Positions 2 to 55,504 of a stretch of 64,000 bases of DNA are shown one piece after another. The notes under the pieces were generated by a model. That model was not told the origin of the DNA. It did not search any database and saw only the letters and a list, made by a program, of their open reading frames with translations. The stretch is from the NCBI GenBank assembly GCA_963710995.1, contig CAVQCU010000056.1:432-64431 (forward strand), written 5' to 3'. Position numbers and translations under genes: made by a program. Every line of letters begins with the position of its first letter. The first letter of the stretch is position 1. Origin of the DNA: an uncultured delta proteobacterium. Lineage in GTDB: Bacteria; Desulfobacterota; Syntrophia; Syntrophales; Smithellaceae.

Positions 2-742
<741 letters not shown>

Positions 743-3040: not shown

Positions 3041-3127
3041 TGATTGTTCTCCTGATGCTGCTTTTGTTTCTTATATATGTTGATGCGCTTTGCCTGGCGC
3101 ACTAAGACATTGCTTTTCCATGCTTGA

Positions 3128-3156
3128 ACTATACGAATTTTGGTTTTGTATGTCAA
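3128..3156 (-). promoter_or_regulatory. Sigma70-type promoter inside module A, reading into 2216-3040
   Basis: Minus strand reads TTGACA-17 nt-TATAGT. Confidence 0.6.
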
Positions 3157-3280
3157 CAAAATATAGGTCGCAAAAATATAAGGTGTAGTGTCGATGCTTG
3201 CCGTTAAGAATGAATTGTGTTTATTACAGATTGAAAGAAAGTATATACGTGAAAAATCCTTAATGCTCGCTTACAGGAAG
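3128..3280 (+). repeat. Cassette-boundary module, full copy A (promoter part + box1 + linker + box2)
   Basis: Contains TTGTATGTCAA, GTGTCGATGCTTGCCG, GAATTGTGTTTATTACAGATTGAAAG, a 33-nt linker and TTACAGGAAGGAAGAAAG. Confidence 0.8.
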
Positions 3281-3432
3281 GAAGAAAGAAATAAAAAATT
3301 GGAGCGTAGCGATCGGCTGGATTGATTTGTTAAGAGGTTTTATGGAACAGAACAACTTCATTAAATAAAAACATAATTAACAATCTGTCAGGCCTCCAGA
3401 TTATCAAGACTGCTGCATGGCGAAAAAGGCAC

Positions 3433-3750
3433 TTATGTGATCATAGAGAATCCTACCTGAGTGATCTGGTCTTCCAGCTTCTTGATCCAGGACACTTTGG
3501 CTTTCACTATGGGGAGCTTGCCACATTTGCAAAGTACTTCCTGCCCCTGTTTGAAGCTTACTCCACCCACAAAAACGCCACAGCACCCCTTAAAACTTTC
3601 ATTTTGGCAAAGACCCACGCGCTGTTCCGTCTTCTTAGTACTCTCATCCAGATAATAAATAGTGACAAGCTCGTTCGGCTCAGCAGAATACCTAGTGTGT
3701 TTTCTATCTTTGTAACCGCTCATTGAAAACTCCCTCTGGTCTATTTCCAA
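3433..3750 (-). CDS. PilZ-domain protein (putative c-di-GMP receptor)
   Basis: RKHTRY (RxxxR-like) and NESFKGCCG (D/NxSxxG-like) motifs in a ~100-aa single-domain ORF. The start may instead be the internal ATG at 3723. Confidence 0.55.
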   Translation of the reverse strand: MEIDQREFSMSGYKDRKHTRYSAEPNELVTIYYLDESTKKTEQRVGLCQNESFKGCCGVFVGGVSFKQGQEVLCKCGKLPIVKAKVSWIKKLEDQITQVGFSMIT

Positions 3751-3823
3751 TCGAAAAGGACTTTCAATAAAATTTAATCTTCATAGGAAAATATTTGATA
3801 AGAGCTTGCTTTCACTGGAAGTG

Positions 3824-3852
3824 AGTGTAGTGTAGCCACGCATGTATGTCAA
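3824..3852 (-). promoter_or_regulatory. Sigma70-type promoter inside module B, reading into the PilZ gene
   Basis: Minus strand reads TTGACA-17 nt-TACACT. Confidence 0.55.
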
Positions 3853-3970
3853 GGAAATCTTGGCCACAAAATGTTAAGTATTAACGTTTGTCGTCGGGCG
3901 TAAATTGTGTTTATTACGGATTGAAAGCTTGCATCTTTGTCGAGATTGGCGTTTTGTTGATTACAGGAAG
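3824..3970 (+). repeat. Cassette-boundary module, full copy B
   Basis: Contains GTATGTCAA, TAAATTGTGTTTATTACGGATTGAAAG, a 33-nt linker and GATTACAGGAAGAAATGC. Confidence 0.8.
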
Positions 3971-4198
3971 AAATGCTTGCTGAGTTCCTACAAATACTCA
4001 ACTTTAGTACATTAATAAATTTGAGCATTATTGATCGAAAAGATGTAACGATTAATCAGTAACACGTGCAACTATTTTTGCAAAATCAATAAGTCGCCTT
4101 AATTAAAGGAGTGCCGGTCGGCTGACTGTAATCTATGGAAGTTTATTTTTTCTATTTCTGTTGACGGCAGAAAGAGCAGGCACATTCGCAATAGTCCT

Positions 4199-5341
4199 CT
4201 ACTCGAAGCCCATGATCTCATAAAGGCATTCACCTTCCAAAGGGATAACTTTGCCATGCTCGATGATGTTACCATTATATCTTGCAATGACCCGGAAATA
4301 GGTAGGCCTCGCAATAAACGTGCGAGCGACCCACTGGGAAAAGGGGTTCAATTCTGCTGTCGTGAGAAGGTCAACATCTTCTACCAAGGAATTGAACTGG
4401 ATGTGCAGGTGAGCCTCCACCTCTCCCTCGGCAAAATCAATACTGATCTGTCTCGGATAATGGCGCTTCAATACAGGGTGAGTGACGAAATCCCACTGGC
4501 GAATTGTAGGACTGCCTGTGCCTACGATAATTTTATCTCCCTTGGCAATATAAAGCGGCCTCGCCTTATTCATGGAAGGATCGATATAGTCAACGTCTGC
4601 GTAGATGATGGTATACTCGTTCGCGAAGATCCTTCCCCACACCCAGTGCCGCGTTATCTCGTTGAGTGGTTTCCTGCCCCAGTTGTGGTCGGCATATCCC
4701 ACTCCTTTTACATGCCGGGTATGCCCGTCCTGGGTTATGGTGCCCTCTATGCGGTTACGTGCCTGATGCACGCTCCAGAAAAAATCAAGGGAGTCTTCGT
4801 TGACTCTATCTGTACCGGCGGGCATCCATCCCGGTGCTATCATGGTAAATTTTAAATCTGCCACGATGCCTTCCATGTTCCACTGCACATGGTAATTCTT
4901 ATCGTCCATTCTTCGGACAAAACCCAAGGGGCAGGTAACATCCACATCCTCTGTTGAGGATTGCATCTCTTCGGTTTGAAGTGATTTTAGAATGGACCTT
5001 TTCTTCCAGTCCGGGCTGTAGAGCGAAAATGTGACCCCGGGTTTTCCGTTCGTAAAACTCGGGTGAAGGAATGCCCCCACAAAGGTCTCTCCAGTATCTA
5101 AATGTCCATCAAAGTACCACCACTCGAAGGGACGTTTGCCTGTGATCGTATGGCGGGCCCTGTCCTGAGCATTGGGTTGGTTCTTGCCCCAATTCAGATA
5201 CGCGTTGCTTTTGCCAATGCTCTCGGTGGGTCTAGGCAAAGAGGTGCAGGAAAGGGTTGCCAAGACCAGCAGTACGGCGAAAAAAATTGCTGGAAACATA
5301 TCTGGCGCGTGGCATTTTTTGATAAGATATTGCTTCTGCAT
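4199..5341 (-). CDS. CrtC/AttH-like (hydroxyneurosporene-synthase family) lipoprotein
   Basis: Signal peptide ending in a lipobox-like LATLSC. WEWWYFDGHL motif and beta-rich 380-aa body are typical of the CrtC/AttH lipocalin-like family. Confidence 0.65.
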   Translation of the reverse strand: MQKQYLIKKCHAPDMFPAIFFAVLLVLATLSCTSLPRPTESIGKSNAYLNWGKNQPNAQDRARHTITGKRPFEWWYFDGHLDTGETFVGAFLHPSFTNGKPGVTFSLYSPDWKKRSILKSLQTEEMQSSTEDVDVTCPLGFVRRMDDKNYHVQWNMEGIVADLKFTMIAPGWMPAGTDRVNEDSLDFFWSVHQARNRIEGTITQDGHTRHVKGVGYADHNWGRKPLNEITRHWVWGRIFANEYTIIYADVDYIDPSMNKARPLYIAKGDKIIVGTGSPTIRQWDFVTHPVLKRHYPRQISIDFAEGEVEAHLHIQFNSLVEDVDLLTTAELNPFSQWVARTFIARPTYFRVIARYNGNIIEHGKVIPLEGECLYEIMGFE

Positions 5342-5347
5342 GGATAA

Positions 5348-5376
5348 ATTATAGGAAGGCCTGTCTTGTATGTCAA
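5348..5376 (-). promoter_or_regulatory. Consensus sigma70 promoter placed for a leaderless mRNA of 4199-5341
   Basis: Minus strand reads TTGACA-17 nt-TATAAT-TTATCC-ATG. The start codon begins 7 nt after the -10 box. Confidence 0.65.
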
Positions 5377-5461
5377 GAAAATCTTGTGGTGTGAATGATG
5401 TTTATTACGGGTTGAAATCTAGCATATTTATTGAGGTTGATGATTTGTGGATTACAGGAAG
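5348..5461 (+). repeat. Cassette-boundary module, copy C
   Basis: Contains TTGTATGTCAAG, GAATGATGTTTATTACGGGTTGAAAT, a 33-nt linker and GGATTACAGGAAG. Confidence 0.8.
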
Positions 5462-5552
5462 TTATCGATAGCATGGTGGTCACTGATGCGGATAAGCATG
5501 TTGAGTGGTTTGTGTGGGCCGGGGGAAGAACCCCCGGCACCTGGAATAGCTT

Positions 5553-6662: not shown

Positions 6663-7178
6663 ATGAAAAAAATAATCATTATCTTTGTTTTATTAGTAGC
6701 AGGTTGCGTCAATGTACCGGAAAATATAACACCTGTTGATAATTTCAATATCGAGCGGTATCTGGGAAAGTGGTACGAAATAGCTCGGCTTGATCATTCC
6801 TTTGAACGGGGGCTCACGTCGGTTAGTGCTGAGTATAGCCTGCGGTCCGATGGAGGTTTGCGGGTTGTGAATCGAGGTTATTCTCAAAAGGAAAATAAGT
6901 GGAAAGAGATTGAAGGCAAGGGGTATTTCGTTGATCGTAAAGATCAGGGCTTTCTGAAAGTTTCTTTTTTCGGCCCTTTTTATGGATCGTATGTTGTCTT
7001 TGATCTGGATCGTGAGAATTATTCATACGCACTGGTATGTGGTCCAGATAAATCTTATCTATGGCTTTTGGCCCGCAACCCGAAAATAGATGATAATTTG
7101 AAAAAACGTCTGGTTGATAAAGCCGCCTATCTGGGATTTGACACGGACAAATTAATCTACGTACAGCATGATGACTAA
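6663..7178 (+). CDS. blc: Bacterial lipocalin (outer-membrane lipoprotein Blc)
   Basis: Lipobox LVAGC, then the signature NFNIERYLGKWYEIARLDHSFERG and ..LWLLARNP.. of Blc-type lipocalins. Confidence 0.9.
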   Translation: MKKIIIIFVLLVAGCVNVPENITPVDNFNIERYLGKWYEIARLDHSFERGLTSVSAEYSLRSDGGLRVVNRGYSQKENKWKEIEGKGYFVDRKDQGFLKVSFFGPFYGSYVVFDLDRENYSYALVCGPDKSYLWLLARNPKIDDNLKKRLVDKAAYLGFDTDKLIYVQHDD

Positions 7179-7182
7179 ATCA

Positions 7183-7243
7183 TTTATTACGGATGGAAAT
7201 CTAGTATATTCGACAAAGATAACGATTTATTTATTTCAGGAAG
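7183..7243 (+). repeat. Cassette-boundary module, core-only copy D
   Basis: Contains TTTATTACGGATGGAAAT, a 33-nt linker and TTTCAGGAAGAAAAT. Confidence 0.7.
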
Positions 7244-7293
7244 AAAATAATTATTTAGCTAATATTAAGTTTGTTATGAAAGTTAATATTAGC

Positions 7294-10544: not shown

Positions 10545-10764
10545 AGGATAAGATGTCTTAAGTCCTTTCGAGTTCTGCGCTCAAAGATTGAATTTGTGCT
10601 GATGGTCTCCGCACATTCAATAGGCAGTAATATCATTTCCTAGTTGTCATGGAAAAATTAATTGTAACCACACACCTCAAAAGATTATTCATCTCATTAT
10701 CTACGTTAAATTATAACTAAGATTTATTATTACTACAAGATTCTAATGAGATTTTTTGATATAA

Positions 10765-12276
10765 TTAAGCGTGGTCTTTACAAGCTGGAAGAATGAATTG
10801 CTCCTTCAGTGCCCTTGTACGCCGTTTCTGATAGTAACACTGAACCTTTGCCATTGCTCGAATAGCCTGTTCCGGGGATGAATAAGCCATGATCCCCATC
10901 GAGTCCAGATGCTTGACGATATTGCCTTCACCAACCATGTCAAAACCGACAAGGTCAATGACAGGTAAGATGGGTTTATTGAAGTGCTTTATCTGTCGAA
11001 TGATGAGATTCAGCAGTTCCATCTCATCGGCAATCATCTTTCGGGCAGGCTGCTCCATCAACTCGATCGGGAGAACAGGTGACGACATCCAGTTTCTTGC
11101 GCGGCTGGTCATGTACCCCAGGCCAAGAAGAAGAATGGCATCCATATCAGCATATTTCAACAATATTTCGATAGAATCCGTTATCATCGAAACCCTTCCC
11201 GGTGCGACCAGATCGACCGGGTTCCGTCTGCTCCAGAATGCTGGCAGGAATGCATCGAGCATGCTAACCACACGCTCATCCAGCGGCGGGATCTCCAACC
11301 CAGACATCTCACACAGGTCAGCAGATATCACGCCCCATCCACCCCCTAGCGTGACAATACAGATGCGTTTTCCAGTGAACTGTGGCTGTGACAACATGAG
11401 CCCGGCGATATCCACCATCTCATCCATGGTATCCACCAGAATTACATTGGCCTGGTGGCACATGGACTGAAACACCGCGAAGCTTCCTGCCATTGCTCCG
11501 GTATGAGACATGGCCGCGTCAGCGCCGCAGGTCCCAGTGCCTCCCTTGAGAAGTATGACGGGCTTGGCCGATGATATGCGCCGGATCGTTTCGATGAACC
11601 GGCGGCCCTGGCGAACTCCTTCGATATAGAGGCATATAACCCGTGTCTTTTCGTCCGTTTCTAAATATTCCAGGTAATCTTCAATCGTGAGGTCTGCCTC
11701 GTTGCCAGAGCTGATCAGGCGGCTGATGCCAATCTCACGACGGAGAAAACGGTATGAGATGGCGGTTCCCAGATTGCCGCTCTGGGATACCACGGCAACG
11801 GGTCCCTGCTTGAATGTCGCAGCGGTCATGACCGCCTGCATGCGTGACGGATATGCGCTGTAAACTCCCATGGTGTTCGGACCTACTATACGAATGCCTC
11901 CGGCGTGCGCGATAGAAAGGACCTCCTGTTCCAAAGCCTTCCCCTCTGCGTCCGTTTCGCCGAATCCTGCTGTGATGATCACGACGGCATGTATGTCTGC
12001 GTCAATGCATTCACGAAGCGTATTCGGAACTCTTTCTTTAGGAACGACTATGATGGCCAAGTCAATCGGCCGAGGGGCTTCGGCCAGGCTTTTATACATT
12101 GGCCTGCCAAACCATATTCCGCCTTGGGGATTTATCGGATATATGTTTCCGGTGTACCCTCCCTTTATGAGGTGATGGAGAATGTTAAATCCCCATTTGG
12201 TGGGATTTGTTGACGCACCAATAAACGCAATCGCCCGCGGTTCAAAAAGGGATGTATAGAATGATCTGTGATCCAT
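10765..12276 (-). CDS. ADP-forming acetyl/acyl-CoA synthetase-like protein (CoA-binding + SCS-like domains, no ATP-grasp domain)
   Basis: N-terminal CoA-binding fold (IAFIGAS..KWG..YPINP) and the phosphohistidine-loop-like MSHTGAMAG. Confidence 0.75.
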   Translation of the reverse strand: MDHRSFYTSLFEPRAIAFIGASTNPTKWGFNILHHLIKGGYTGNIYPINPQGGIWFGRPMYKSLAEAPRPIDLAIIVVPKERVPNTLRECIDADIHAVVIITAGFGETDAEGKALEQEVLSIAHAGGIRIVGPNTMGVYSAYPSRMQAVMTAATFKQGPVAVVSQSGNLGTAISYRFLRREIGISRLISSGNEADLTIEDYLEYLETDEKTRVICLYIEGVRQGRRFIETIRRISSAKPVILLKGGTGTCGADAAMSHTGAMAGSFAVFQSMCHQANVILVDTMDEMVDIAGLMLSQPQFTGKRICIVTLGGGWGVISADLCEMSGLEIPPLDERVVSMLDAFLPAFWSRRNPVDLVAPGRVSMITDSIEILLKYADMDAILLLGLGYMTSRARNWMSSPVLPIELMEQPARKMIADEMELLNLIIRQIKHFNKPILPVIDLVGFDMVGEGNIVKHLDSMGIMAYSSPEQAIRAMAKVQCYYQKRRTRALKEQFILPACKDHA

Positions 12277-12320
12277 AGCAGCTCCTTGTAATTGGTGCGA
12301 ACTTACTTTTCCGAGAAGGG

Positions 12321-12349
12321 AGTATAAGGAAAACGCATTTGTATGTCAA
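12321..12349 (-). promoter_or_regulatory. Sigma70-type promoter inside module F, reading into 10765-12276
   Basis: Minus strand reads TTGACA-17 nt-TATACT, about 40 nt upstream of the AAGGAG RBS. Confidence 0.6.
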
Positions 12350-12420
12350 TGAAGAACGAGCCACAAAACGTGGAGTGAGGTGTCGACTACTGTCGAGCAT
12401 GTATAGTGTTTATTACGGAT

Positions 12421-13117
12421 GTATGCCGTGTAAAACGTATGACTAGTCGGTTAAAGTCCGACCATGGAGTTCGGTAGTTCGCCCATGTAGCTTGAGGGAG
12501 GTGTTAAGGGTAAACTGAAGCACTAAGTTCTCTGACAAAGGCTCCGTAAGAGAGTCGAGCAAACCTGCGGGTCGCAGCGTGAGCGAACCTAGATGTAGCC
12601 TCGAAACACACGATGGAGTTGTCGACCCCGTAATGGAAGGGGGAAGACCGGAGCATCTATCATAACGATAACTACCAGAACCGATAGATGGACTTCCGGG
12701 GTAACAGGGGTGACACGCAGGAGCAGCCATACGACAATGAACACGGGAGACCCTTGTCGATGCTGTGGAAGCGGCAACTGGTGGATATAAGGGAACGAAA
12801 TTTTACCGGGTCGATAAGGGAGTCGGAGTTGCTCATAGTACCGCTTGTATTCCAAGGACAACATAACCTTGGGAGAGGGAAGGGGCAATACCTTCATCAT
12901 GCTTCTAAAGGAGTGAAGGAAAGGAGATTGTGGTAACGCTATTAACTCTGAATATTTCGAGAACTCAGGTGGAAGCTATACTGGAAGGCCAAGTGAAAGC
13001 GAAAGCTTCTGGAAGAAGATGATTGGAAAGCCGTATTCGGGAAAACCGAACGTCCGGTTTGATGAGGGGGAGCTGGAGATAGAACCATTTGGCAACTACG
13101 CCAACTTTCTATTCTAC
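12421..13117 (+). mobile_element. ORF-less group II intron, copy 1 (~697 nt)
   Basis: Canonical domain V at 13028-13060 (AAGCCGTATTCGG-GAAA-ACCGAACGTCCGGTTT). A DVI-like region ends ..CTAC. Boundaries were inferred from uninterrupted modules. No reverse-transcriptase ORF is present. Confidence 0.75.
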
Positions 13118-13735
13118 TGTAAGAAAGCATACTTGACAATATTGATTTATTTGTTTCAGGAAGAAGTGCTTACTGAGTTTACGTACAAGTCCGCACATTT
13201 GCAATGAGATGGATATTAATGATTATGGAAAGAAAGGTTGAAAAACCAATTTGGAGTAAAGTATAGTTTAAGAGAATATAGTATTTCCACAACTGTCGCA
13301 CGTCTGTTCAAATCAACTTTTATCGTATCTAAAGGCATCCTCCAGAGAGCTTGTCATTTAATCGCCTCGCTAATTTGCAATAATGAACATCAATTGTCTG
13401 CCTGCTGTCAGGCACCGGAGGAAATATAGGAATAGCGAGATATTGCGGACGATGTCAATTAATTAGAAGTTTCTTACATTATTCTCATTCCATATAAAAC
13501 TGCCGCATGTACATCCCCAAGCAGTTTCCGTAAAGATGACCTTCCGCCATCAGACAAACACCGATGGCAATCCCGCCTTTTGCCTGAAGGCAGTTTCATC
13601 TTTTCCCCGACGAAAGAATCAGACGCAGACTGATTGTGGAAAAAAGCGATAGGGATTATATTACTCTCGAACAAGATGAAAAAAGAAATGGAGACAGTGC
13701 GTCTCCTATAATGACATGACATAAGGAGCAAGATT

Positions 13736-20400: not shown

Positions 20401-20429
20401 AGTATACGAAGAATGATTTTGCGTGTCAA
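20401..20429 (-). promoter_or_regulatory. Sigma70-type promoter placed for a leaderless kinase mRNA
   Basis: Minus strand reads TTGACA-17 nt-TATACT-CCCATC-GTG, where GTG is the ORF start at 20394. Confidence 0.55.
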
Positions 20430-20552
20430 GATGATTGTGACTGCAAAATAAGGGATGTGGTGTCGATGCTTGTCGTAGGGCGTGAATTGTGTTTGCTACA
20501 GATTAAAAGAAAGCATGTCCATGAAAAATCCTAAATACTCACTTGCAGGAAG
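20401..20552 (+). repeat. Cassette-boundary module, full copy G
   Basis: Contains GCGTGTCAAG, GTGTCGATGCTTGTCG, GAATTGTGTTTGCTACAGATTAAAAG, a linker and CTTGCAGGAAGTAAGAAAT. The linker is close to those of copies A and K. Confidence 0.8.
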
Positions 20553-20643
20553 TAAGAAATAAAATTCGACTAAAAATATTTTATCCGAACTTTAAAAATT
20601 AAAGATTGTATCTACAAAGTTTCAGTAGAGAGCGGTTGTCAGA

Positions 20644-20666
20644 GTTGAGGATTACCATTTAAAAGG
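20644..20666 (+). repeat. Cassette-boundary module, diverged box1 only (copy G')
   Basis: GTTGAGGATTACCATTTAAAAGG is nearly identical to 803-825. Confidence 0.35.
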
Positions 20667-25512: not shown

Positions 25513-26298
25513 GTGAAAAATAATTCTTTTAGCAATAGAGTTAAAATAATACTGGTTCTGGCTATCGCGCTATTAGTGGCGCAGATAGCCAATACCATAT
25601 TTGCAGCCGAGAAGTATCCTTCGCCGCGCGGCGCAGTCAATGATTTTGCCAATGTCATTGATCAGGATAACGCCGTTAAAATAGAAGCTTTGTCGCGTGA
25701 AGTTTTACAAAAAACAGGCACGGCGGTTGTTGTGGTAACTGTCCCTACTATCGGAGAAGGAGAAGAAACCAGTCTCTATGCTAATGGACTTTATAAAGCG
25801 TGGGGTATCGGGAAAAAGGGCGAGGACAAAGGTCTTTTAATTTTTTTAACTGTTAAAGAAAAAAAATATTGGATTGAAACCGGTTACGGTGTAGAGGGTA
25901 TATTGCCGGATGGTTTGGTCGGTGAAATCAGAGACAAGTATCTAAAGCCGCAACTCCAAGCAGGTAATTATGGTGATGCTTTTTATGACACAGTGTCCGC
26001 ATTTAGTTCTATTATTGCCAAAGATGCCGGTGTTCAGCTGAGCGGATCGCCCGCACCATACCGGACAAATGCCCGCGCCCAGCAAAAAGGCATTAACGTT
26101 TTTGGATTAATATTTTTCTTCATTGCGGCTGCCTTGCTTTTAGGCACAAGAACAGGAAGATCAATGCTTCCCTGGATATTGCTTTTGTTCTTGAGTGGCG
26201 GCCGTGGTGGTGGCGGTGGCGGCGGTGGTTTCGGCGGCGGCTTTGGCGGTTTTGGCGGCGGTGGTAGCGGCGGCGGCGGGGCCGGTGGAGATTACTAA
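25513..26298 (+). CDS. TPM-domain (YgcG-like) protein with a TM segment and Gly-rich tail
   Basis: Signal/anchor, TPM region (VNDFANVI..LLIFL..ETGYGVEGILPD), a TM helix and a GGGGGGFGGGFGG tail. Confidence 0.8.
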   Translation: MKNNSFSNRVKIILVLAIALLVAQIANTIFAAEKYPSPRGAVNDFANVIDQDNAVKIEALSREVLQKTGTAVVVVTVPTIGEGEETSLYANGLYKAWGIGKKGEDKGLLIFLTVKEKKYWIETGYGVEGILPDGLVGEIRDKYLKPQLQAGNYGDAFYDTVSAFSSIIAKDAGVQLSGSPAPYRTNARAQQKGINVFGLIFFFIAAALLLGTRTGRSMLPWILLLFLSGGRGGGGGGGGFGGGFGGFGGGGSGGGGAGGDY

Positions 26299-26372
26299 TC
26301 ACGGGTATGAACCACAAAGCAAGCTGCTGGGTATTATATATAGTCCCACTTAGCTTCGCACGTGGGATAATT
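26298..26372 (+). repeat. 75-nt repeat, left arm of a long-range inverted pair (partner 30322-30395)
   Basis: ATCACGGGTATGAACCACAAAGCAAGCTGCTGGGTATTATATATAGTCCCACTTAGCTTCGCACGTGGGATAATT is roughly 85% identical by eye to the reverse complement of 30322-30395. Confidence 0.7.
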
Positions 26373-26394
26373 TCCAATAGCCTTTGGCTATTGG
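26372..26394. repeat. Perfect mini-palindrome inserted between two copies of GATAATT
   Basis: CCAATAGCC-TTT-GGCTATTGG is flanked on both sides by GATAATT, which looks like a 7-bp target duplication. Confidence 0.5.
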
Positions 26395-26540
26395 ATAATT
26401 CGACTAACAAACTTTAATGCGCCTATAGTGACCTTTAGGTTATTCGCTTTTAAAGTTTGAGTCTCATTACGACCAGCAAGTTTCAGTCGAAGATGACCTT
26501 CAGGTTACGTGCTTCGCTTCTGAAACTTGGGACTCATTAC
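26393..26540 (-). repeat. Two nested/tandem hairpin repeats of the TAATGAGAC..GAATTATCC (R2) family
   Basis: Read on the minus strand: TAATGAGTCCCAAGTTTCAG..CTGAAACTTGCTGGTCG, then TAATGAGACTCAAACTTTAA..TTAAAGTTTGTTAGTCGAATTATCC. Confidence 0.65.
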
Positions 26541-30158: not shown

Positions 30159-30253
30159 GACCGGGCGAGTCGGCTGGCGCCGGCCGCGGGCCTCAACCCC
30201 GTCGGGCCAACAATAAAATGTTGTGCTGATCAGTTCGATTCTGAGCCCGGCCT
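30159..30253 (+). tRNA. selC: tRNA-Sec-like gene (selC candidate), anticodon UCA
   Basis: Hand-folded. 8-bp acceptor (GACCGGGC/GCCCGGCC, one A-C mismatch). 6-bp D-stem GTCGGC/GCCGGC with 4-nt loop. Anticodon arm GCGGG-CCTCAAC-CCCGT. ~26-nt variable arm with CAACA/TGTTG stem. T-loop TTCGATT. Atypical C at position 33. Confidence 0.5.
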
Positions 30254-30282
30254 TATTGTGAAACTCCAATTTAATGAGACTC

Positions 30283-30395
30283 GCTGAAAACGAATGAAGT
30301 GAAGTTTGAAGCGTTAGCCGAATTATCCCACGTGCGAAGCTAAGTGAGACTATATATGATACGCAACCGCTTGCTTTGGAGTTCATCCACGTGAT
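30283..30395 (+). repeat. R2 hairpin repeat plus the right arm of the 75-nt inverted pair
   Basis: TAATGAGACTCGCTGAAAAC..GTTTGAAGCGTTAGCCGAATTATCC is followed by CACGTGCGAAGCTAAGTGAGACTATATATGATACGCAACCGCTTGCTTTGGAGTTCATCCACGTGAT. Confidence 0.7.
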
Positions 30396-30451
30396 TTTTA
30401 ACTCAATTGGTTTTCTTCTCTGTACCGGAAGGATAAGAGAGCTTTGAACAA

Positions 30452-35021: not shown

Positions 35022-35051
35022 TTGACATACGAGCGCTTTCTTCAATATAGT
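35022..35051 (+). promoter_or_regulatory. Sigma70-type promoter with the TTGACATAC extension, upstream of the kinase/NtrC operon
   Basis: TTGACA-18 nt-TATAGT. The predicted start site falls at the first base of the R3 repeat. Confidence 0.5.
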
Positions 35052-35057
35052 TAACTC

Positions 35058-35180
35058 ATACCATTTCGCTTTCTTTGGCTAACTTTGTTGGCTGCGTCGT
35101 CGGCTTCCTCAACGTATGTAAAATACGCCTCGTCGCCTCCTTCTTGCCGCTGCGTTATCCTTTGAAATCGAAATGGTATA
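35058..35180 (+). repeat. R3 repeat, copy b
   Basis: ATACCATTTCG..CGAAATGGTAT inverted ends flank TTGTTGGCTGCGTCGTCGGCTTCCTCAACG..AAAATACGCCTCGTCGCCTCC. Confidence 0.6.
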
Positions 35181-35296
35181 AAAAAATTTCTTATGTAAGA
35201 TTATTTTCCCCGCAGGAACCGGCTCTTTCGGAGTTACAGGTTTTTTTATAAAATTGTCCAGGCAAGATTACATTTAACTCTTTCGGGTAAAAGAAT

Positions 35297-53814: not shown

Positions 53815-54081
53815 TTGTCAATAAAATTTATCCGATTTCATGATCTGTACCATACTTTTGCTACAAGGTTGGTTCAGAATGGCGTGGATCTCTATAGAGT
53901 CCAGAAATTGGGTCGCTGGAAGAAGGTGACAATGGTTCAGAGATATGCACATCATTATCCGGAAAGTCTTAGAGCTGCTATTGAAATGATTGATGGTGTC
54001 AAAAAACCAATTATTACAATTTTATCACAGTCACAAAAAAATAGGATTAGCATGTCCCTTTTGAGACTTGCAAACCCTTGA
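53815..54081 (+). pseudogene. Tyrosine recombinase (phage-type integrase), C-terminal remnant
   Basis: Only the box II region is present (FHDLYHTFATRLVQNGVDLYRVQKLGRWKKVTMVQRYAH). The conserved R of HxLRH is Y and the conserved H of LGH is R. The N-terminal two thirds are absent. Confidence 0.7.
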
Positions 54082-54144: not shown

Positions 54145-54513
54145 GTAATTAACAAAAAGGCGATTTCCCATCAATTTTAACGCCTTAAATATTTATAGGT
54201 TACACAGGGCAAGTTGGTTTATCTTAGGTTAAGACGGTTACAATTTAGTTACATCTTCCTCAACTGATCGCAGGTAAAAAGAATGCTTTGCCGGAGACCG
54301 TGGGGAGACCCTTTTTTGAAAATATGGGTGGGGGAGTATCTATATACCCCACACGCGTGCGCATTAGGCCCTTTGAAAATTTTCCCTAGCGGCACCTCGG
54401 TCGTTCAAAAGTTTCATTGTTATATCAAATTCGACCCCCGAAAAATTTCAAAAAAAATAGTTCATTCCCATGTTGGAAGTTGCATATGATAGTAGGATTG
54501 CCATTATTGATAA

Positions 54514-55285
54514 CTTCCTGTAAGTGAGCAATTAGGTTTTTTCAAAGACATACTTCCTTTCAGTAGAGTAGAGAACTGGCGTAGTAGTTGCGTGCTCTAT
54601 CTCCAGTTTTCCCCCCCTCATCAAACCGGACGTTCGGTTTTCCCGAATACGGATTTCCAATCATCTTCTTCCAGAGGCTTTCGCTTTCACTTGGCCTTCC
54701 AGTATAGCTTCCACCTGAGTTCTCGAAATATTCAGAGTTAATAGCGTTACCACAATCTCCTTTCCTTCACTCCTTTAGAAGCATGATGAAGGTATTGCCC
54801 CTTCCCTCTCCCAAGGTTATGTTGTCCTTGGAATACAAGCGATACTATGGGCAACTCCGACTCCCTTATCGACCCGGTAAATTTTCGTTTCCTTATATTT
54901 ACTGGTTGCCCTCCTTAGAGCATCGACAAGGGTCTCCCGTGTTCATTGTCGTATGGCTGCCCCTGCGTGTCACCCCTGTTACCCCGGAAGTCCATCTATC
55001 GGTTCTGGTAGTTATCGTTATGATAGATGCTCCGGTCTTCCCCCTTCCATTACGGGGTCGACAACTCCATCGTGTGTTTCGAGGCTACATCTAGGTTCGC
55101 TTACGCTGCGACCCGCAGGTTTGCTCGACTCTCTTACGGAGCCTTTGTCAGAGAACTTAGTGCTTCAGGTTGCTCTTAACACCTCCCTCTAGCTACATGG
55201 GCGAACTACCGAACTCCATGGTCGGACTTTAACCGACTAGTCATACGTTTTACACGGCATACATCCGTAATAAACACAATTTACA
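54514..55285 (-). repeat. Cassette-boundary module, inverted copy K, split by group II intron copy 2
   Basis: Minus strand reads AAATTGTGTTTATTACGGAT, then the intron, then TGAAAGGAAGTATGTC..CTCACTTACAGGAAGTTATC. Confidence 0.8.
54563..55262 (-). mobile_element. ORF-less group II intron, copy 2 (~700 nt), domain V triad mutated
   Basis: Same 5' end (GTATGCCGTGTAAAACG) and the same insertion point as copy 1. Domain V reads AATCCGTATTCGG (AGC changed to ATC). The 3' ~60 nt diverge from copy 1. Confidence 0.75.
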
Positions 55286-55310
55286 TCTTACAATAAACAG
55301 CGGCAACACA

Positions 55311-55414
55311 CAGTTCTTTAAATTACCGCCGTCAAGCAACAAAGGTGTATCTGAATTGACAATTGAAAAAATGGCTGAACCCTAACATGTGGTACAAGTA
55401 TCTATGTTAGACCA
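55311..55414 (+). mobile_element. IS3-family right-end remnant (diverged relative of 21883-22058)
   Basis: Translates to ..SSLNYRRQATKVYLN*, followed by AAAAATGGCTGAACCCTAACATGTGGTACA..GTTAGACCA. Confidence 0.55.
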
Positions 55415-55458: not shown

Positions 55459-55504
55459 TTGACATGACAACAAACATCGCATATTATAAAATCCGACTGG
55501 TCGG
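55459..55504 (+). promoter_or_regulatory. Sigma70-type promoter plus a palindromic candidate TetR operator
   Basis: TTGACA-17 nt-TATTAT, followed by the inverted repeat CCGAC-TG-GTCGG at 55493-55504, 30 nt upstream of the tetR-family gene. Confidence 0.5.

Follow-up and report, generated by a model that had tools for sequence, protein, structure and literature searches.

Two group II introns were found at positions 12421-13117 and 54563-55262 of a 64-kb window (by which we mean the whole stretch of DNA that was analysed), confirming what a first-pass annotation had observed from the letters alone. Both copies are ORF-less through the internal deletion of an IEP gene in domain IV. Taken as a whole, the data are best explained by a non-autonomous bacterial group II intron that is present twice, a reading to which we assign a probability of about 0.8; Rfam matches, covariation in the fold and relatives that carry an IEP all agree with the group II identity originally proposed. 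Although this kind of element is already known, the copies belong to a large, previously unexamined family of passenger introns from anaerobic sediment and peat bacteria.

Copy 1 (12421-13117, plus strand, 697 nt) starts with GTATGCCGTG and ends with CTATTCTAC, giving a 5′ GUAUG and a 3′ CUAC. It lies between a 5′ exon target at 12406-12420 (plus strand, GTGTTTATTACGGAT, with GUGUUU as IBS2 and ACGGAU as the IBS1 region) and a 3′ exon that begins at 13118 with a T. Copy 2 (54563-55262, 700 nt) was correctly placed in the first-pass annotation with regard to coordinates and site, but its strand, which is the minus one, had been left unstated. Its 5′ exon target (55263-55277, minus strand) has the same sequence as that of copy 1 and its 3′ exon, TGAAAG, runs from 54562 on the minus strand, so that TTATTACGGAT stands before the insertion and TGAAAG after it, at the same nucleotide as in copy 1. 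Sequences matching TTATTACGGAT with at most one mismatch occur seven times in the window, against 1.3 expected by chance (0/100 shuffles); five of them run on into TGAAAG-like sequence and two are interrupted by the insert. Comparison with the uninterrupted module, TTATTACGGAT/TGAAAG (here and below, a slash within a target marks the insertion point), bore out the exact bounds of the 697-nt insertion that had been proposed on the same grounds, and the ligated exons of copy 1 are predicted to read TTACGGAT-TGTAAG on the plus strand. The two copies are 94.3% identical, with 40 aligned positions different. What their flanks have in common is the module consensus only, namely ~15 nt upstream and scattered boxes downstream, and the two intron-bearing modules diverge as much as any other pair of modules. 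The inserts are therefore far more alike than the modules that host them. Both copies are antisense to the flanking genes, the orientation already described with respect to the genes called cassettes.

Ribozyme fold and the deleted domain IV gene

An Rfam scan of the window, as suggested in the first-pass annotation, matched model RF02003 (group-II-D1D4-4) to both copies, with 81.8 bits for copy 1 and 80.0 bits for copy 2 (cutoff 49). Model RF00029 (DV/DVI) matched copy 1 at 13026-13117 with 42.2 bits (cutoff 40), and copy 2 fell below the threshold of this model in the same scan. An alignment of 20 complete ~700-nt deleted copies was then used for covariation analysis and yielded a fold with the six canonical domains. 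The consensus contains 203 predicted pairs, and 98.3% of the alignment cells in them form a standard pair. Compensatory double changes were present in 38 pairs, compared with 16.3±2.5 in column shuffles (0/500 reached 38) and with 4-8 in controls in which the pairing partner was slid. In copy 1, on the plus strand, the consensus fold delimits D1 (12426-12746, 321 nt, holding the RF02003 match at 12444-12582), D2 (12747-12824), D3 (12825-12892), a remnant of D4 from which the IEP ORF is deleted (12894-13022, 129 nt), DV (13025-13063, with the AGC triad at 13029-13031, a 2-nt bulge and a GAAAA loop) and DVI (13064-13114). The bulged branch-point A is at 13111 (alignment column 715), 7 nt from the 3′ splice site at which the intron ends ..CUAC. 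DV, initially described as textbook with its AGC triad and 2-nt bulge, is near-textbook in copy 1, with one U.C mismatch that is common to part of the family. Without the D4 remnant, the ribozyme measures ~640 nt. The 5′ GUAUG had been flagged as a deviation from the usual GUGYG and can now be traced to the lineage: it is found throughout the family, with GUACG in L042, and recurs in distant relatives from the Opitutales, with a protein identity of only 43%. It is thus a lineage trait and not damage.

Two relatives, L008 and L039, are ~85% identical to the window copies in the ribozyme and carry a domain IV insertion of ~1250 nt encoding a protein of 440-468 aa, with the Pfam domains RVT_1 (6e-40) and GIIM (1e-13). 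No HNH or endonuclease domain was found in this protein by Pfam search, and the nearest solved proteins are the group II intron RTs 7uim and 6ar1. An RT-maturase ORF of 440-468 aa is also present in domain IV of L069 and others, and the full-length members of the family are ~1940 nt long. The window copies align with these relatives up to ...CTATACYGGAAGGCCAAG, inside the first ~20 codons of the ORF, and the alignment resumes in its last few codons; in copy 1 the deletion junction lies at 12987-13007 (GGCCAAG/TGAAAGCGAAAGC). Most of the ~700-nt copies have this same junction, and a subgroup formed by L050, L073 and L087 has a slightly different one. A tblastn search with the IEP of the relatives found no RT in the 64-kb window, neither in the copies nor elsewhere (best E=1.7), in agreement with the earlier report that no RT or maturase ORF is present. 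IEP-bearing relatives, for which a search of the genome had been proposed at that stage, were found as full-length members in metagenomes; for the IEP presumed to be supplied in trans there are therefore relatives that could supply it, one of which (L069) sits at the same module site. Other rearrangements of domain IV were seen in the family: in L029 (4010-4680) another 26 nt are deleted between direct repeats of CTGGAAG, and L042 (1037-1682, a Thiohalophilus MAG) is differently truncated and keeps only the C-terminal, maturase part of the ORF.

The family was collected by a DV-pattern scan of a species-representative genome collection and by a 5′-end-pattern scan of metagenome contigs. Because the DV pattern used ACGTCCGG and most of the family has ACGTACGG, the scan of the genome collection under-samples it. 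At least 120 loci were found in metagenomes, and members of the family abound in Syntrophales-like bacteria from peat, wetlands and sediments. Of the matches listed whose length allows them to be classified, 32 are of the deleted and 20 of the full-length form. In a neighbour-joining tree of the matches listed, the window copies belong to a clade of 14 that consists of deleted forms only; elsewhere in the tree deleted and full-length copies interleave. This interleaving, together with the second junction variant, weakens the idea that the deleted form had a single origin, which we therefore do not claim. A BLASTN search of PLSDB plasmids with the intron returned no close relatives, only ~70 nt of similarity in DV.

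Target recognition and the intergenic module

The EBS1 loop (GUAAUGGAA, 12630-12638, plus strand, core AAUGGA) is carried by a hairpin at 12626-12642 (GACCCC-GUAAUGGAAG-GGGG). Across the family, positions 3-8 of the loop covary with exon positions -1 to -6: EBS1 CCUACA is found with IBS1 UGUAGG, CCGACA with UGUCGG, CACAGA with UCUGUG, CCAAGA with UCUUGG, CCUCCA with UGGAGG, AAUACA with UGUAUU and AUCCGA with (A)CGGAU. Over these seven different combinations, 5-6 of the 6 pairs are formed in 58/65 copies compared. The window copies score lowest among the family copies compared, as their EBS1 AAUGGA forms 3/6 pairs with the exon sequence ACGGAU (two Watson-Crick and one wobble), so that canonical retrohoming does not straightforwardly account for these exact copies at this site. 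A shifted EBS1 register, with GUAAUGGA pairing with UUUAUUAC at -12 to -5, was rejected, because all relatives pair loop position 3 with exon -1. The cognate of AAUGG is ..ATTACCATT/ (IBS1 ACCAUU), which is the target of metagenome locus L160; sites of the ACGGAU and ACCAUU types are identical at -9 to -5, at -1 and at +1.

The EBS2 loop (AAACACACGAU, 12604-12614, plus strand) fits the occupied site better, as its AAACAC(A) pairs with (U)GUGUUU at exon positions -15 to -10. Of the EBS/IBS pairing that the first-pass annotation had suggested looking for, the window copies hence show 6-7 bp between EBS2 and IBS2 and a weak EBS1/IBS1 match. In the family, the best run complementary to EBS2 within exon positions -20 to -7 has a mean length of 4.42 nt, compared with 4.07±0.10 for loops permuted among copies (0/2000); among the clear cases, L069 and L146 reach 9 bp and L074 reaches 8 bp. 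No EBS3 column covarying with the first base of the 3′ exon was found in the family alignment, a search that failed because +1 is a T in nearly all copies.

The same site is used by full-length members of the family. In L069, L145 and L146, full-length introns follow GTGTTTATTACGGAT/TGAA and have the EBS1 AUCCG and the EBS2 AAACACAAU, both of which match the site; L110 and L143 lie at the same kind of site as L069. Upstream of its intron, L069 matches window positions 3423-3921 with 94.8% identity, and the orthologous module of this sister strain holds an IEP-bearing intron, with the window site at 3921/3922 empty (module m3843, GTGTTTATTACGGAT/TGAAAG, 3907-3921, plus strand). The presence of a full-length intron with a matching EBS1 at the same site in a sister strain indicates that the module is a genuine homing site. 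Site-specific retrohoming into the module, as first put forward, thus holds for the site, which is a target of the family, and is weakened for the window copies by the mismatch of their own EBS1. With that of module m3843, the window contains five empty sites of the module type, the others being GTGTTTATTACAGAT/TGAAAG (3217-3231), ATGTTTATTACGGGT/TGAAAT (5398-5412), TCATTTATTACGGAT/GGAAAT (7180-7194) and the diverged GTGTTTGCTACAGAT/TAAAAG (20489-20503), all on the plus strand. Synteny between L069 and the window stops exactly at the intron insertion point, and the L069 sequence beyond the intron is unrelated, a break that fits either a rearrangement in which intron copies at dispersed positions recombined or a shuffling of segments at the module.

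The preferred targets of the family, yTGAGGAyTTGTAGG/TG, ..ATTACGGAT/TG and ..ATTACCATT/T, are variants of a repeated intergenic sequence. The first of them is the commonest and lies ~25-35 nt downstream of an inverted partner, AAATGGTAATCCTCAA, often after a terminator. Since the ATTACCATT/ site is the opposite strand of this partner, the family colonises both arms of a palindromic intergenic repeat. One such target element lies unoccupied in the window at 20600-20665, where the plus strand reads TTGAGGATTACCATT/TAAAAGG, an empty AAUGG-cognate site (20645-20659, plus strand, IBS1 ACCAUU), and the minus strand AAATGGTAATCCTCAA...CTGAAACTTTGTAGAT/. GTAGG-like sites are also found near modules, on the minus strand at 3987-4000 and 13182-13195.

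The module itself is an intergenic repeat of ~130-190 bp that occurs at 3100-3320, 3796-4010, 5320-5500, 7100-7290 and 20420-20552 and, with introns inside, at 12293-12420 plus 13118-13205 and at 54470-54562 plus 55263-55400; it is also present in the related metagenome contigs L069, L123 and L146. Its three parts are a sigma-70-like promoter on the gene strand (TTGACATACA-N17-TATAnT), a core box (GTGTTTATTACGGATTGAAAG..AGCATAT) and TTACAGGAAG. On the gene strand each module ends in the promoter, which is a strong one (TTGACA-17-TATACT at 12349-12321 and TTGACA-17-TATTAT at 55459-55487 for the two occupied modules), and the module may be a shared upstream regulatory region. The introns lie on the opposite strand, 55-90 bp upstream of the -35 box of the neighbouring gene, and split the conserved boxes CTTCCTGTAA...CTTTCA/ATCCGTAATAAACAC. 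For the sense strand of the introns, no convincing promoter was found upstream. A structured RNA or known RNA family was rejected as an identity for the module, which gave no Rfam match at E<=1 and no consensus fold on either strand, and so was a sigma-54 promoter in the core, where the spacing from GG to GC, judged by eye, is 11 and not 10.

The neighbouring genes are ordinary metabolic and regulatory ones (ferredoxins, rubrerythrin, acyl-CoA enzymes, a TetR regulator), and neither an integron integrase nor an attC-like fold was found in the window. An 88-aa C-terminal fragment of a tyrosine recombinase (53815-54081, plus strand, Phage_integrase, 9e-12) lies ~480 nt from copy 2, and an ORF at 47-742 (plus strand) encodes a transposase of the IS110 family (Transposase_20 and partial DEDD_Tnp_IS110); both point to a neighbourhood rich in mobile DNA. 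Other repeats are present as well. A conserved intergenic repeat of ~125 nt (AATCACGGGTATGAACC..TATTATATATAGTCCCACTTAGCTTCGCACGTGGGATAATT) occurs in the window at 26296-26419 and, in reverse, at 30255-30402, and elsewhere in L017 (5897-6038), L145 (1782-1908) and L146 (557-641); one of its copies adjoins a tRNA-SeC gene at 30163-30253, with no obvious relation to the intron. Window positions 35044-35181 (138 nt) are 93% identical to positions 4040-4176 of L017, a Syntrophaceae MAG contig, and are a further shared repeat or conserved non-coding element. Finally, the Logan contig L001 (ERR11523660), which comes from public short-read data for the same organism, is 100% identical to window positions 10559-12435 and ends 15 nt into the intron; the intron family acts as an assembly breakpoint.

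Present state of the copies and competing explanations

In the helices of D1, the two copies share a C.A mismatch and a 1-nt deletion. Four changes are private to copy 1: three convert G-C into G-U pairs, and a C to A substitution at alignment column 96 breaks a pair of a small D1 hairpin. Copy 1 keeps every catalytic motif. Judged from these features, it appears to be a competent ribozyme whose 5′ exon matches poorly, and it should splice poorly from its present exons. Copy 2 has 12 private substitutions or indels. Its DVI contains a 4-nt insertion and its triad reads AUC (54654-54652) instead of AGC, a G to U change unique among the 20 aligned copies; with the catalytic triad mutated, copy 2 is probably dead and decaying. 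A compensated pair in D2 also differs between the copies (GCUG/CGGC versus GCUC/GGGC).

In the mechanism that we propose, the ~1940-nt members encode the RT-maturase, and the ~700-nt form, which keeps the six ribozyme domains without the protein gene, would splice and move only with protein provided in trans by a full-length relative. Movement would take place by reverse splicing into DNA followed by reverse transcription, and the target is chosen through pairing of the EBS1 and EBS2 loops with the 15 nt upstream of the insertion point. Both copies entered the ..GTGTTTATTACGGAT/ variant. Because EBS2 matches this occupied site and EBS1 AAUGGA is cognate to ..ATTACCATT/ instead, the most likely course of events is either an off-target insertion into a look-alike site, helped by EBS2, or a later replacement of EBS1 by recombination between intron copies.

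There is a real, if minor, chance that both copies are inert fossils, having ceased to splice and to move, and that the second one arose at the DNA level and not by way of an RNA intermediate, whether through gene conversion or through homologous recombination involving either modules or intron copies. The EBS1 mismatch to the exon and the mildly damaging D1 changes are common to both copies, copy 2 has a mutated triad and an altered DVI, the window lacks an RT, and the synteny with L069 ends precisely at the intron, which is what recombination between intron copies would predict. However, the ~15 nt upstream and few nt downstream that the flanks share are too little for ordinary homologous recombination, and the 40 differences between the copies, the compensated D2 pair among them, suggest separate sources or continued structural constraint; moreover, copy 1 retains all its catalytic motifs and the site occupied twice is a proven target of the family. 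The EBS1 mismatch itself might also have been created by assembly, if intron bodies from ..ACCATT/ copies had been joined to these module flanks. The intron is indeed a repeat that is hard to assemble, as seen from the break of the short-read contig L001, and all copies begin with ~200 nt that hardly differ from one copy to another. We nevertheless consider such an artefact quite improbable, given that copies differing at 40 positions have not collapsed into one consensus, that the junctions at both intron ends are clean and in the same register, and that both copies lie within a single 64-kb sequence.

The parallel with the group IIC-attC introns of integrons drawn in the first-pass annotation is an analogy of orientation only. 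If it were taken literally, the copies would be introns of the group IIC or IIC-attC type that exploit an array of integron-like cassettes, in which the module would serve for recombination in the manner of attC. Group IIC introns measure ~400-450 nt, lack EBS2, have a short IBS1 and typically a CGC triad; B.h.I1, S.ma.I2 and the O. iheyensis intron are examples of the IIC and IIC-attC types. As in these systems, insertion is intergenic and beside hairpin-forming DNA or terminators in several members of the family (L008 and L154 lie directly after a terminator hairpin, and the target used most often forms one arm of a palindromic repeat), introns may run antisense to the genes beside them, and the IEP lacks an endonuclease and has IIC RTs as its closest solved structures; the tyrosine-recombinase fragment near copy 2 could be added to this list. 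In contrast, the window RNA is much larger, with a 321-nt domain I in a ribozyme of ~640 nt, an EBS2 loop with a covariation signal, an EBS1 of 6-7 nt and an AGC triad, for which reasons we class it as IIB-like and not IIC. The module has a promoter of its own, and neither of its strands shows a conserved fold; the window contains no intact integrase, and the supposed cassettes are ordinary metabolic genes. All in all, the chances of an IIC-attC intron in a cassette array appear very slim.

Known relatives in behaviour and biological meaning

To our knowledge, ORF-less group II introns are regarded in surveys as rare in bacteria; the survey of Simon et al. 2008 is said to have catalogued a handful of them, and Mohr, Ghanem and Lambowitz 2010 reportedly described ORF-less introns of Thermosynechococcus elongatus that are mobilised in trans. 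The window intron resembles the T. elongatus type in having a full ribozyme with a domain IV devoid of an RT gene, full-length members with the protein gene among its close relatives, more than one copy at sites set by EBS/IBS pairing and, presumably, the need for an IEP acting in trans. It differs from it in lineage (Rfam D1D4-4 type, 5′ GUAUG, an IEP without endonuclease domain), in the deleted form outnumbering the full-length one among the metagenome matches listed, with one clade entirely deleted, in targets that are variants of a repeated intergenic element, and in the mismatch between the EBS1 of the window copies and their own site. RmInt1 of Sinorhizobium meliloti, an endonuclease-less IIB-like intron of class D, is a second point of comparison, a likeness that is drawn apart from any class assignment. 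It too has an IEP with RT and maturase domains only, recognises its target by EBS1, EBS2 and probably EBS3, and inserts into multi-copy, non-essential DNA. Unlike RmInt1, the window family has a 5′ GUAUG and not GUGYG, and its usual target is a palindromic intergenic repeat and not an insertion sequence.

A bolder view, which we regard as rather unlikely, is that the ~700-nt form is a long-lived, MITE-like lineage, a pure RNA parasite of the RT of its family, that has radiated through Syntrophales-like genomes by retargeting between the two arms and the variants of one palindromic intergenic repeat. If this were true, the window copies would show entry into one type of site twice with a non-cognate EBS1, and recognition would depend mainly on EBS2, DNA structure or the protein, and not on the canonical EBS1-IBS1 helix.

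With regard to this genome, the two copies of the non-autonomous intron mean that the 700-nt inserts are not genes, that they split a conserved element upstream of two promoters, and that dispersed intron repeats are likely break points in assembly and rearrangement. Further interest comes from how abundant the deleted lineage is, from its targeting directed by a repeat and from the non-cognate EBS1 of the window copies. Among the matches listed, from many environmental assemblies, the deleted form is commoner than its full-length parents, and still its ribozyme evolves by compensatory changes. The family is therefore a good natural system in which to study how non-autonomous introns persist, how EBS sequences are retargeted and where the limits of relaxed pairing lie.
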